Shown: in pieces, positions 31,340-36,313 of the stretch
How the letters are laid out: every line of letters begins with the position of its first letter
Position numbering within the stretch: the stretch's first letter is position 1
Assembly: GCA_964634365.1 (NCBI GenBank)
Contig: CAZWJU010000001.1
Span: 167,028 to 231,027, forward strand
DNA length: 64,000 bases
Direction of reading: 5' to 3'
Origin: an uncultured Candidatus Saccharibacteria bacterium
GTDB lineage: Bacteria > Patescibacteriota > Minisyncoccia > Phycocordibacterales > UBA9973
Position numbers and translations under genes: made by a program
Notes under the pieces: generated by a model
What the model was told of the DNA's origin: nothing
Databases searched by the model: none
Seen by the model: the letters and a program-made list of their open reading frames with translations, nothing else

Positions 31340-31564
31340 TTAATAAATTATATGTTTCTTCGTGTACGTACTCTCATAAATTTCTTTTAAATTTCTAAAC
31401 TCTATTTTTGTCTTTTTTACTTTTGGAGGACAGTCTGAGAAACATAAAACCAAATCATTTGAAAACTTACTATACACTACTTGCTTGTGTGGAATTATCG
31501 GCAAGAACCAAGCAAGAGTAAATGCAACGAGAAGTATGAGAATGGTATATAAAAAATATTTCAT
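31340..31564 (-). CDS. Small single-TM protein encoded between atpG and atpD (start likely MKYFLY.., 4 nt after the atpG stop)
   Basis: It is the only ORF filling the ~260-nt atpG-atpD gap and has a clear TM helix [21 protein letters not shown]. Confidence 0.4.
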
Positions 31565-31568
31565 AAAT

Positions 31569-32453
31569 TTAACTAACACTTGCCATTCCGGCACTAATTT
31601 CTGATATTTCTTTTGTGATCGCAGCCTGACGCGCTTTGTTGAACGCCAGTGTCAGATCATCGATCATTTCTCCTGCAGCTTCCGACGCATTCTTCATCGC
31701 CATCATGCGAGAGGACTGTTCAGACGCACTAGACTCTAAGAGCATTTGATACACCTGACTTCGTGCAAGTTTCTCTACAAGTGCAGACATGAGGACTTCA
31801 TACCCTGGCTCGAAAGTATAGGAATAGTTTGTAGAATGAGCCATTTGATCTAAATCTTCTACAGACTCTCGAACTTCATCTTTCGATATTGGAAGAAGCT
31901 GACGGACAACTGGTTTTTGAACAAGTGGATTTAGAAAATCTGTATAAGCAACAGATACCTTATCGTATTTTTCATTTTTGAAATCACTGATTATGAGATC
32001 TGCAATCGGCAATATTTCACGAAGTGTTGCGTTTTCTGGAAGCTCTAAGAACGAAGCGACGACATTTTGCCCGAGTCTTCGAAGTGCATTCTCGCCTTTT
32101 TTACCAACTGCAACGAAATCAATTTGCTGACCTTCGCTTTCACGGATCATTTGTAAAATCTTGCGGATAATCTGTGCGTTGTATGCACCACAGAGTCCAC
32201 GGTTGGAAGTTATGAGCACAACAAGAGACTTGCCACCTGTACGCTTTGTAAGTAATGCATGTTCTGATTCATTTTGAACAACAGACAGAGCCTCGAGTAG
32301 CGTCCAAGATTCGTGTGCATATGGACGAGACGAGACAGCTGAAGCAACGGCGCGCTTCATTTTGGAAGCAGAAACCAGCTCCATCGCTTTGGTTATCTTC
32401 TTAGTGTTTTTAACACTCTTTATTCGTCTTTTTATATCAAGTGATCCTGCCAT
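31569..32453 (-). CDS. atpG: F1 ATP synthase subunit gamma
   Basis: The product begins MAGSLDIKRRIKSVKNTKKITKAMELVSASKMKRA and has a conserved gamma C-terminus. Confidence 0.9.
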   Translation of the reverse strand: MAGSLDIKRRIKSVKNTKKITKAMELVSASKMKRAVASAVSSRPYAHESWTLLEALSVVQNESEHALLTKRTGGKSLVVLITSNRGLCGAYNAQIIRKILQMIRESEGQQIDFVAVGKKGENALRRLGQNVVASFLELPENATLREILPIADLIISDFKNEKYDKVSVAYTDFLNPLVQKPVVRQLLPISKDEVRESVEDLDQMAHSTNYSYTFEPGYEVLMSALVEKLARSQVYQMLLESSASEQSSRMMAMKNASEAAGEMIDDLTLAFNKARQAAITKEISEISAGMASVS

Positions 32454-32460
32454 AATAAAA
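32425..32460 (-). repeat. Repeat copy R1: atpG translation-initiation region (TAA-ttttatt-ATGGCAGGATCACTTGATATAAAAAG)
   Basis: This is one of three near-identical copies; see the findings. Confidence 0.8.
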
Positions 32461-32796
32461 TTAGGAACCTATTGAAAATAATAATATTATTCCTACAACT
32501 GCAAATACACAGTTAACAATCGAAACAGACATCAATGCTATATCTCCTTTTATACGTCCGACATTCTCAGTCTTTCGCATACAGCTTATCAGAGACTTAA
32601 TTACTCCACTAAGCGAAAAAATAATAGTCAAAACTACTAGAGAAATTAGCACAAGGAAAAATGGGCGTACCAAATCGCCAAGTTCAGCTTGTCTCGAGAT
32701 CAAAAAAGCAAAAGATAAGGATTCCAATATCCAAAGAATTGTCAGCGTGATATTTATTTTTATTAGTGTGTTTTTCATATCAAGTGATCCTGCCAT
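32461..32796 (-). CDS. Small 3-TM membrane protein, paralog C (the first 6 codons MAGSLD are a copy of the atpG start; the true start may be MKNT at 32778)
   Basis: It is paralogous to the two upstream ORFs in TM spacing and in the motif SLSGVIKSLISCMRKTEN. Confidence 0.5.
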   Translation of the reverse strand: MAGSLDMKNTLIKINITLTILWILESLSFAFLISRQAELGDLVRPFFLVLISLVVLTIIFSLSGVIKSLISCMRKTENVGRIKGDIALMSVSIVNCVFAVVGIILLFSIGS

Positions 32797-32806
32797 AAAT
32801 TAATAA
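32771..32806 (-). repeat. Repeat copy R2 (TAA-ttt-ATGGCAGGATCACTTGATATGAAAAAC)
   Basis: This copy is identical to R1 over about 27 nt except for 1 to 2 positions. Confidence 0.8.
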
Positions 32807-33141
32807 ATATTATTTTTGAATAAATTTGTAATTGCAAAGAAACCAACACTGCATACAAGAAGTGCTATCGATACAACACGCAACTTCCTTTCAAATCCCA
32901 ACATCAATGGATTATTCAATCGATTAATTTTTCTAGCACGCAGGAGACCTGAAACAGCAAAGACACAAGAGAACACTAGTAGGACAAAGGAAGAAATATA
33001 AGAAATCAGCATTGCCCAGAAAAAATATATATTCTGAGAATCAGCACCTAGGAAAAAAATAAGAATAATTACAACCCAAATTCCAACCAATATTTGATTG
33101 GTTCGGTAAATAAATTTTTCTGTTGTGTCTTTGTTTTCCAT
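32800..33141 (-). CDS. Small 3-TM membrane protein, paralog B
   Basis: The 113-aa product has the motif AVSGLLRARKINRLNNP between TM2 and TM3. Confidence 0.5.
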   Translation of the reverse strand: MENKDTTEKFIYRTNQILVGIWVVIILIFFLGADSQNIYFFWAMLISYISSFVLLVFSCVFAVSGLLRARKINRLNNPLMLGFERKLRVVSIALLVCSVGFFAITNLFKNNIY

Positions 33142-35058: not shown

Positions 35059-35095
35059 ATATTAGTATTTAGTGATTAGTAGTTAGCGAACAGAA

Positions 35096-35500
35096 TTATT
35101 TTAAGAGTGCTTGTCTAAATCTGTTTATTCGACCAGAGAGACTCGCGTCTATCAGATACTCGTCAGTTTTTATTTTCCATCCTGCAATCAGTTTTTTATC
35201 TATCTTTGTTTCTACCTCTACATCATCTGCCCCTACTTCTTTTTTAAAAATGCGAACTATTTCCTTTTCATGTGATTCAGATATTTTTTCTGGGAGCACA
35301 AGCTTCGCATAGACTATCTTTTTTTGACCTGTTGCTATCTTCTCGAATTTTTCCAGTATATTATCGACTTTTCCAAGCATCCTTCTTTTTTTCAGAAATC
35401 TTGCATATGTGTGTATGATTTTTGAAACATCTTCTACACTGTGACCTTTGGATATTTCGTACAAAATGTCAGCGTATTCGGTTGTACTATTTTTTTTCAT
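35096..35500 (-). CDS. atpH: ATP synthase subunit delta (OSCP), short form
   Basis: Its position and a C-terminal OSCP-like sequence support the call. Confidence 0.75.
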   Translation of the reverse strand: MKKNSTTEYADILYEISKGHSVEDVSKIIHTYARFLKKRRMLGKVDNILEKFEKIATGQKKIVYAKLVLPEKISESHEKEIVRIFKKEVGADDVEVETKIDKKLIAGWKIKTDEYLIDASLSGRINRFRQALLK

Positions 35501-35502
35501 TG

Positions 35503-36000
35503 TTAATTAAATTCTTTTACTGCTCCTTCTGATATCTTTGACTTTAGTTTTTCATCCATAACATCACCCAGTATCTTTTCTGCACTAGACACAACCAAGT
35601 GAGCCAACTCCTTTTTGGCCTCACCGAGCATTTTTGCCTTCTCTGCTTCAAGTTCCATGCGACCATTTTCGACAAGCTTTTGTGAATCTAGAGATGCTTT
35701 TACAAGCAAATCTTCGCGAATTTTTTCTGCATCTTTTTTTGCTTCGCTTATTAATACGAGAGATTCTTTGCGAGCCTCAGCAATAATCTTTTTATATTCT
35801 TCTTCAGTTTCTAAAAGCATTTCTTTATGCTTTTTTGCGTCTGTGAGACCAGTTGCGATCTTCACACTTCTTTCATCCATCAACTTGCCAAGTGGCTTGA
35901 TAGCAAATTTATACAATACAACAATCACTATCGCAAAGTTAACCATCTGAGCAATGATAAGTTTCCAGTCTATGTGAAATGTGTCTATAAGTGAATCCAT
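35503..36000 (-). CDS. atpF: ATP synthase Fo subunit b
   Basis: An N-terminal TM is followed by a long charged helix. Confidence 0.85.
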   Translation of the reverse strand: MDSLIDTFHIDWKLIIAQMVNFAIVIVVLYKFAIKPLGKLMDERSVKIATGLTDAKKHKEMLLETEEEYKKIIAEARKESLVLISEAKKDAEKIREDLLVKASLDSQKLVENGRMELEAEKAKMLGEAKKELAHLVVSSAEKILGDVMDEKLKSKISEGAVKEFN

Positions 36001-36016
36001 TTTTATAAAAAATTAA

Positions 36017-36313
36017 TTATATTTCTCCGTAATAGCTCTTGACCCTTTTTACAAATTCATCTACATCATCTTTGTGTAGCATGTAATCATGGTAAGAACC
36101 CGTACCTTTACCCTCTTTATCAAAAACATTTTTTAACTTCAAACCTTCGCCAAGATTTTCATAATCTGCATCTAGTCCATCAACAAATCTGCTTATGTAC
36201 TGGGTTTGTCTACCACCAAGAAGCTTTCTTGCTATGTCACTCATCTTTACAAACCCTTCCATGTCACAAGGTAAATTCTCGGGATTTTGATTTTCTTCAA
36301 TTTTTATTTTCAT
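36017..36313 (-). CDS. Soluble ~98-aa protein of unknown function encoded between atpE and atpF (start taken as MKIKIEENQ)
   Basis: The ORF lies on the operon strand and fills the 390-nt c-to-b subunit gap. It has no TM helix. The longer ORF-track version overlaps atpE. Confidence 0.45.
   Translation of the reverse strand: MKIKIEENQNPENLPCDMEGFVKMSDIARKLLGGRQTQYISRFVDGLDADYENLGEGLKLKNVFDKEGKGTGSYHDYMLHKDDVDEFVKRVKSYYGEI

Follow-up and report, generated by a model that had tools for sequence, protein, structure and literature searches.

In the 64,000 nucleotides (nt) of DNA analysed here, which come from an uncultured Candidatus Saccharibacteria bacterium (GenBank assembly GCA_964634365.1, contig CAZWJU010000001.1, forward-strand positions 167,028 to 231,027) and are referred to as the window, the minus strand carries a complete F-type ATPase operon in which additional open reading frames (ORFs) lie between the subunit genes. 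Two of these are the subject of this report, namely ORF X, which encodes a soluble protein of 98 amino acids (aa) between atpE and atpF, and ORF Y, which encodes a 74-aa protein with one transmembrane (TM) helix between atpG and atpD. We consider it rather probable that the atp-operon junctions in this Paceibacteria lineage of the candidate phyla radiation (CPR) are landing slots for small, co-transcribed passenger genes. ORF X is a genuine protein-coding gene under purifying selection and probably no part of ATP synthase. The elements on which the argument turns are the following (positions in the window):

36391-36603, minus strand: atpE (subunit c; PF00137, E 1.8e-17), the upstream neighbour of the hairpin and ORF X
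36318-36397, minus strand: long, imperfect hairpin reaching from the atpE stop codon to 5 nt before the ORF X start codon
36017-36313, minus strand: ORF X, 98 aa, soluble and acidic (MKIKIEENQ...SYYGEI), in the atpE-atpF gap
35503-36000, minus strand: atpF (subunit b; PF00430, E 1.7e-26), starting 16 nt past the ORF X stop
31569-32453, minus strand: atpG (gamma; PF00231, E 1.4e-89), its stop 4 nt ahead of the ORF Y start
31340-31564, minus strand: ORF Y, 74 aa, one TM helix, in the atpG-atpD gap
29949-31307, minus strand: atpD (beta), starting 32 nt past the ORF Y stop, with the start context AAATTTATGAA common to ORF Y and atpD

A preliminary description of this region, made from the sequence alone, had placed a same-strand ORF for a soluble protein of about 98 aa in a 390-nt gap between atpE and atpF and one for a single-TM protein of about 74 aa in a gap of some 260 nt between atpG and atpD. 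Coordinates and sequence of the former are as described, and the latter gap measures 261 nt, the ATG of ORF Y following the atpG stop codon after a 4-nt spacer. The atpE-atpF gap extends from 36001 to 36390, and ORF X takes up 297 of its 390 nt. When 5000 dinucleotide-preserving shuffles of each gap were searched for same-strand ATG ORFs of at least equal length, an ORF as long as X appeared in two of the 5000 shuffles of the atpE-atpF gap. The deduced protein has an isoelectric point (pI) of 5.1, and its highest 19-residue Kyte-Doolittle mean is 0.28, so that it contains no hydrophobic segment.

Searching 5.8 billion proteins returned four diverged orthologues of ORF X (62-88% BLASTP identity) and one identical copy, and in every contig carrying an orthologue (L001-L010, one of which is the Candidatus Pacebacteria genome GCA_017991335.1) the gene is located between atpE and atpF. 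In all, five orthologues of 62-90% identity occupy this slot. The ratio of nonsynonymous to synonymous substitution rates (dN/dS) lies between 0.06 and 0.19 in pairwise comparisons with dS values of 0.4-2.6, i.e., with synonymous sites near saturation; for comparison, values of 0.03-0.14 were obtained for atpE, atpF, atpH and atpA. The start codon is aligned across all orthologues, and the two indels that occur, of 6 and 36 nt, are both in frame. The codon-usage log-odds of ORF X (0.377) equals the median of 74-codon windows taken from the long genes of the window, is specific to its own frame and exceeds the scores of all 65 spurious ORFs. The conservation across relatives that the preliminary description had named as a check on the ORF is thus borne out by the retention of start codon, reading frame and atpE-atpF slot. 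Because only 16 nt separate ORF X from atpF and no obvious promoter of its own precedes it, ORF X is most likely co-transcribed with atpE and atpF; a scan for promoters and terminators revealed nothing convincing in front of either X or Y.

Contig L011 is otherwise the closest relative of the window operon (98.6% identity for AtpA, 99.6% for AtpD and 100% for ORF Y at the protein level), yet it is devoid of X, and its atpE and atpF are only about 128 nt apart. X is also missing in L039, a Paceibacterota genome, and in all five other CPR-type operons recovered (L032-L036, stemming from Nomurabacteria and Saccharibacteria metagenome-assembled genomes (MAGs) and one MAG labelled Gammaproteobacteria), where the atpE-atpF gaps measure 58-150 nt. 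The atpF gene closest to that of the X-less L011 is found in the X-bearing L007 (93.4% nucleotide identity over the full gene), and the 5' end of atpF in the X-less L039 is 97.7% identical to that of the X-bearing L008 over the 87 nt available for L039. As the X-less alleles are nearest to X-bearing ones in atpF, at least two changes of state, or recombination, have to be assumed. L011 and L039 are not nested as one clade, and both have a spacer of about 51 nt that is unrelated to X and bears no deletion scar. In sequence comparison, the X-bearing and X-less states behave like alternative cassettes that would have been exchanged or lost more than once. Because the two kinds of allele alternate among close relatives, X is, as judged from the gene content of these operons, dispensable for ATP synthase.

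A metagenome locus scan with an alignment of the close X subfamily led to a metagenome contig of 33% G+C, L042, on which a 96-aa homologue with 68% identity to X is situated between gap and rpiB. It lies 1 nt from the upstream GAPDH gene, overlaps rpiB by 14 nt and is followed by rpe and a split transketolase gene; there are no atp genes within 5 kb, and the neighbours were verified by Pfam. The same contig contains an unannotated 110-aa ORF between rpe and the transketolase gene (L042:6510-6842), another possible passenger. The preliminary description had implied a link between X and ATP synthase, and this link was not supported. Among relatives, X and the atp operon do not consistently go together, given the absence of X from L011, L039 and the more distant operons L032-L036, the homologue in a gap-rpiB-rpe-tkt operon and the occurrence of the family in mobile and viral contexts described below. 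The idea that X compensates for a short delta subunit was rejected. Delta is indeed short in the window (134 aa, aligning to positions 54-172 of the 172-position OSCP profile, with a short N-terminus), but it measures about 130-135 aa in all relatives examined, with or without X.

Insertions are found at other junctions of the operon as well. Its remaining cistrons, with all subunit identities established via Pfam or orthology, and its three further ORFs are these:

37609-37896, minus strand: atpI/Z-like gene (PF09527), separate from X and Y
36687-37607, minus strand: atpB
35096-35500, minus strand: atpH (delta)
33556-35058, minus strand: atpA
33188-33553, 32800-33141 and 32461-32796, minus strand: three multi-TM ORFs at the atpA-atpG junction, another variable slot
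29455-29889, minus strand: atpC

X, Y and the three TM ORFs between atpA and atpG make up the five extra ORFs that the preliminary description had counted in this operon. Its statement that neither X nor Y occupies a position that normally holds a gene was overstated for the former, since subunit b' is located between subunits c and b in cyanobacterial, chloroplast and many alphaproteobacterial F-ATPase operons.

Across the clade, the atpH/atpA, atpA/atpG and atpG/atpD junctions, and in one genus also the atpE/atpF junction, contain lineage-specific, mutually unrelated ORFs. In the Paceibacteria and Nomurabacteria relatives some of these encode soluble proteins (174 aa, 133 aa) and others small TM proteins. 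The atpG-atpD slot, for example, is taken by an unrelated 226-aa ORF with two TM helices in L001 and by a 177-aa ORF in L032. As the relatives have their own, unrelated junction ORFs, the insertions are a clade-wide feature. Extra ORFs in the related atp operons lie at:

L011:2843-3367
L001:9226-9450, 10965-11102 and 12018-12698
L032:9458-9859 and 10848-11381
L033:9444-10136

In the window, a direct repeat of about 27-29 nt corresponding to the 5' end of atpG is present at the TM-ORF junctions (32429-32455, 32772-32798 and 33157-33185, minus strand), from which it appears that the array of TM ORFs expanded through duplications that included the start region of atpG. The third TM ORF begins with ATGGCAGGATCACTTGATAT, repeating the first 20 nt of atpG, and its product accordingly starts with MAGSLDMK, compared with MAGSLDIK in the gamma subunit. 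These common 20 nt, together with the AAATTTATGAA context common to Y and atpD, suggest that inserts reuse the start context of the gene downstream. No Shine-Dalgarno-like motif precedes any cistron from 29455 to 37896, inserts included, and the leaders are A/T-rich throughout. Searches of the literature turned up no earlier account of additional ORFs in the atp operons of bacteria from the candidate phyla. Directly upstream of the operon lie a tRNA gene (38066-38137, minus strand; 71.9 bits in Rfam) and a 102-aa ORF (38254-38562, minus strand), the L001 orthologue of which has an RRM_1 RNA-binding domain; the gene order RF-1, RRM protein, tRNA, atp is common to the window and L001.

According to the reading that we prefer, the junctions of the F-type ATPase operon would act as landing slots for small accessory genes, and these junction genes would be transcribed as passengers of the constitutively expressed atp operon. 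ORF X would be such a passenger, with a compact winged-helix-like alpha/beta domain, the activity of which we infer from a structural model, and ORF Y would be a small membrane-anchored orphan in the equally variable atpG-atpD slot.

The gap in which ORF Y resides (31308-31568, 261 nt) has 27% G+C, and the deduced protein has one N-terminal TM or signal-anchor segment (residues 6-24, hydropathy mean 2.38) and a cysteine pair (CFSDC). Its sole database match is a 100% identical protein called from an upstream GTG start, and the ORF was found only in the near-identical contigs L011 and L012, with 0-1 nt differences, the single change being synonymous. No family match was obtained for Y, as searches of Pfam and PHROGs returned sub-threshold noise only and no profile of PADLOC or NCBIfam matched; nor was anything found that makes Y part of the enzyme. 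Probably, Y is a translated, young or foreign, membrane-anchored orphan. It is conceivable, though we doubt it, that Y is no functional gene and instead represents AT-rich filler or an insertion remnant that is open by chance, its TM-like peptide resulting from T-rich codons. A codon score of 0.005, which lies under the first percentile of windows from real genes and does not surpass that of another frame, would agree with this, as would the low G+C content of the gap, the lack of any homologue beyond near-identical strains and of any family match, and a single substitution that gives no sign of protein-level selection. Chance, however, does not readily produce such a frame: a 74-codon ATG ORF arose in none of the 5000 same-strand shuffles and in 0.06% when either strand was considered. 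The ORF furthermore fits the gap exactly, between 4 nt past the atpG stop and 32 nt before atpD, it has the same start context as atpD, and its build of N-terminal TM helix plus cysteine pair recurs in atp-junction ORFs of L001 (74 aa), L011 (73 aa) and L033 (112 aa).

Two further propositions about Y were discarded. A special DNA-level conservation, with 0/225 differences in L012 at 87.6% identity for atpG, turned out to be a test without power because the divergence of atpG is mostly confined to two indel patches and the flanking background amounts to only about 2-4%. These patches (32100-32170 and 31820-31895) are hypervariable, contain indels and account for most of the atpG divergence from L011 and L012, outside of which atpG differs by only about 2%. 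A derivation of Y as a remnant of the 226-aa ORF in the same slot of L001 was rejected, as the two resemble each other only in a hydrophobic stretch of 13 residues.

ORF X, for its part, is a member of a sizeable family. When 1.84 billion cluster representatives were searched exhaustively with a profile, 118 proteins were obtained at E <= 1e-3, mostly of 70-190 aa and each representing a cluster at 50% identity, and a second, indexed search gave 89 members, all of them unnamed and without Pfam domains. The core motif reads FGDvAR..LG.Q.QY.SRY..G...P.LG.GLRF....YH...IHkDDv.EFv.R. (numbering according to X), with H80, D83 and R90 invariant throughout the family and Q36, Q38, Y39, S41, Y74, H75 and F87 nearly so. 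Family members occur in diverse surroundings. One follows a galU-type nucleotidyltransferase gene at a distance of 14 nt (L047), others have a gene for a probable HTH_38-domain transposase in their vicinity (L044/45) or adjoin the gene of a HicA toxin (L046), and in L017 the member belongs to a group of small ORFs that genes for an EcoRI-methylase, GmrSD and DUF3800 precede by about 0.9-1.8 kb. Fourteen IMG/VR viral contigs contain a member, which in one case adjoins virion structural and tail-fibre genes; several of these contigs are 277-465 kb in length. The very large contigs with a member include L013, a 370-kb JGI scaffold from a plain metagenome, and the IMG/VR contigs L019-L027 (174-465 kb); most of them are flagged as viral, they consist largely of unannotated ORFs, and two have FtsK/packaging-ATPase-like neighbours. 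No match to X itself was returned by tblastn against 50,697 GenBank phage records, and a viral scan with the close X subfamily detected no close viral homologue. Unnamed and widespread, the family has members on bacterial chromosomes, other housekeeping operons among their locations, in mobile or defence islands and on contigs of phages as well as very large viral contigs.

The preliminary description had suggested that the 98-aa protein might have a helix-turn-helix (HTH) or antirepressor-like fold. Profile searches do not bear this out: no HTH family was found for X or any of 88 members even at E <= 5, and no model in Pfam, PHROGs, PADLOC or NCBIfam matches X or recurs among members (57 or 88 members, up to E 5). 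A sequence-profile search of the PDB with X gave only SAP30 noise with E above 3. An apparent HTH link through P0047, a protein of 1927 aa with many HTH_3 repeats, was dismissed as spurious (hhalign probability 0.14, different segment). The AlphaFold2 model of X, built from an alignment of 88 sequences (predicted local distance difference test score 79.1, predicted template modelling score 0.68), consists of beta(21-23), alpha(24-30), alpha(37-45), beta(60-61), beta(78-80) and alpha(81-95), which is a winged-helix-like order. In Foldseek searches of PDB and BFVD no match to the model reached E <= 0.001 or a template modelling (TM) score of 0.5. Many of the weak BFVD neighbours are antirepressor, Bro-N, KilA-N, excisionase, PrtN and MerR-like HTH proteins, and membership in Bro-N/KilA-N was not supported, as neither Pfam nor PHROGs gave a match and the BFVD antirepressor, Bro-N and KilA-N entries scored at E 0.27-1.5 and TM scores of 0.35-0.40. 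The suggestion agrees with the predicted topology and with the kind of weak structural neighbours, none of which is a significant match. We file X as a small passenger gene of mobile ancestry with winged-helix-like topology. On the surface of the model the near-invariant polar residues are Q36, Q38, Y39, S41, R42, Y74, H75, H80, D83 and R90. The model suggests that X may bind one conserved cellular partner, either nucleic acid or protein, rather than lineage-specific DNA operators; two features, the acidic to neutral character of the proteins and a putative recognition helix that hardly varies, make a classical operator-specific repressor less likely.

The non-coding stretch of 77 nt that separates the atpE stop from the start of X is nearly invariant in relatives whose flanking genes have dS values above 1. 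The hairpin has a minimum free energy of -31.2 kcal/mol compared with a shuffle mean of -13.3 (z = -7.2), and its consensus comprises 28 pairs, five of them with compensatory double changes. It is also present in the X-less L011 and L039. In each of the five other CPR-type operons (L032-L036), atpE is likewise followed by a hairpin, which has an unrelated sequence (z -3.5 to -5.2), and the element therefore belongs to atpE and not to X. Rfam gave no match in either gap and nothing within 36300-36400 at E <= 1. At 36318-36397 there is neither a U-tract nor a call for an intrinsic terminator, the A/U-rich stem with G-U pairs being followed by CAAUAUG. Intra-operon mRNA stability elements are well established, and the hairpin is probably a 3' mRNA-stabilising or protective element, or a processing element, that would raise the output of subunit c. 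Unlike the simple hairpin of the window, the atpE-atpF spacer of the Nomurabacteria contigs L032 (6849-6998) and L033 (6857-7000) is G+C-rich and multi-branched (-56 to -60 kcal/mol, z about -4.2 to -4.5) and possibly represents an RNA element of another kind. The preliminary description had allowed for the gaps to hold structured RNA rather than coding sequence. This is correct for the first 77 nt of the atpE-atpF gap with their very stable, conserved and covarying hairpin; that the gap as a whole is a structured RNA and contains no gene is, however, extremely improbable, as the hairpin ends before the X start and the next 297 nt (36017-36313) are coding, with dN/dS of 0.06-0.19, in-frame indels and a family of 118 representatives, so that the RNA explanation is refuted for this part.

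One alternative for X is a role in the enzyme, be it as a clade-specific subunit, an assembly factor or a regulator of ATP synthase, e.g., as a soluble partner of the peripheral b/delta stalk or as an inhibitor in the manner of epsilon, zeta, IF1 or AtpTheta. We regard this as quite unlikely. At least four diverged lineages, with dS above 1, have X at the same place between atpE and atpF, which would be in keeping with such a role, as would a constraint close to that on atpH, the 16-nt distance to atpF, the short delta subunit (134 aa) and the fact that the closest homologue outside atp operons again resides in an operon for energy or carbon metabolism. This very homologue, however, 68% identical and part of a gap-rpiB operon, has no atp genes within 5 kb, the close relatives L011 and L039 possess intact operons without X, delta is short irrespective of X, and family members are also found in mobile islands, in phages and on very large viral contigs; furthermore, X has no TM helix and resembles no ATP-synthase family. 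In another explanation, X is, or descends from, a selfish homing-type element, that is, a minimal DNA-targeting gene that spreads by recombination between conserved genes. It would account for the location between highly conserved essential genes in unrelated operons (atpE/atpF, gap/rpiB, after galU), for a presence and absence at odds with the phylogeny of the flanking genes, for X-less alleles with their own unrelated spacer of about 51 nt and no deletion scar, for family members on phage and very large viral contigs, and for the invariant H80, D83 and R90 with the nearly invariant Y74 and H75. It nevertheless appears rather improbable to us: Pfam, PHROGs and NCBIfam reveal no nuclease domain, the model predicts a three-stranded sheet of the winged-helix type and no beta-beta-alpha-metal finger, HNH-containing structures match it at TM scores of only 0.18-0.22, 98 aa are very few for a nuclease plus a DNA-binding module, and long purifying selection at one locus together with native codons suits a domesticated host gene better.

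Several points weigh against the preferred reading, a passenger gene in a variable junction. Where X is present it is constrained as strongly as atpH, and its nearest homologue likewise lies in an operon for energy or carbon metabolism, so that a function connected with energy metabolism is conceivable. Co-transcription we infer only from how the genes are spaced and from a scan that gave no convincing match to a promoter or terminator. The case for a winged helix is weak: the best Foldseek match in the PDB has E 0.78, the best compact match, TraN (4p0y), a TM score of 0.44, and all BFVD matches E >= 0.08; moreover, an acidic to neutral family (pI 5.1 for X, median 6.0) is unusual for small DNA binders. 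As to Y, its codon score falls short of that of real genes and its comparison among strains comprises one synonymous substitution, so that its coding status rests on ORF statistics. A bolder reading takes X as a representative of an undescribed class of "operon-hitchhiker" genes of candidate-phyla bacteria and large viruses, encoding a compact domain, possibly with a new fold, which would form a recombining present/absent cassette at the junctions of highly expressed housekeeping operons (atp, gap-rpiB-tkt, galU). The target of X in the cell would then be universally conserved, and X itself would be a selfish element of the homing type or would modulate energy metabolism; we deem this reading unlikely, but put it on record.

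For ATP synthase itself the outcome is mostly negative: the extra ORFs probably do not encode new subunits, and a reading of this operon as encoding an unusual enzyme is largely excluded. The X family is a selected, sizeable and unnamed family of small proteins across candidate-phyla bacteria, phages and very large viral contigs and as such a small and tractable target for work on structure and binding. In the tiny genomes of Paceibacteria and Nomurabacteria, constitutive operons may be platforms from which accessory genes, and genes that arose recently, are expressed. The post-atpE hairpins, which occur across the clade regardless of their sequence, suggest a conserved post-transcriptional setting of subunit-c output.

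A comparison with known systems helps to place these elements. Accessory genes of atp operons (atpI/atpZ of PF09527, epsilon, zeta, AtpTheta and IF1) are small and genetically linked to ATP synthase, as are X and Y; X and Y, in contrast, match no profile in Pfam, PHROGs, PADLOC or NCBIfam, those of ATP-synthase families included, and an atpI/Z-like gene is already present separately at 37609-37896. Subunit b' (atpG/atpF2 of cyanobacteria, chloroplasts and alphaproteobacteria) has the same operon position between c and b as X. An identification of X as b' was rejected, since X has no PF00430 match (no Pfam family at all at E <= 1) and no TM helix, is modelled as a compact alpha/beta protein instead of one long helix, and is dispensable in close relatives. 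The hairpin, on the other hand, resembles intercistronic stem-loops of the repetitive extragenic palindromic or 3'-protective type in that it is stable, directly follows the cistron whose product is required in the highest copy number (subunit c) and lacks a U-tract; it differs from them in having no Rfam family and, in this genome, in being the single element examined, and again resembles them in persisting across relatives despite unrelated sequence.

Winged-helix modules of mobile elements, such as the excisionase/MerR-like HTH_17 proteins, the N-domains of Bro-N/KilA-N and TraN of pIP501 (4p0y), are similar to X in size (about 70-100 aa), in the predicted beta-alpha-alpha-beta-beta-alpha order and in their occurrence in phages and mobile islands, and they dominate the lists of weak structural neighbours. 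Unlike them, X has no sequence-profile match and no structural match at E <= 0.001 or a TM score of 0.5, its family is acidic rather than basic, and its putative recognition helix (Q.QY.SRY) is nearly invariant even between very distant members, which is not the case in operator-specific regulators. Free-standing homing endonuclease genes and phage morons are, like X, small, wedged between conserved genes and patchily distributed among close relatives, and their expression is driven by the host transcription unit, as would be that of X. X thus combines intergenic insertion between conserved genes with a presence that varies among close relatives, as homing-type genes do. It differs from homing endonucleases in that none of the libraries searched revealed a GIY-YIG, HNH, LAGLIDADG, His-Cys box or PD-(D/E)xK domain, and it differs from both homing genes and morons in that it is stably retained, with native codons and under purifying selection, in a cellular lineage.

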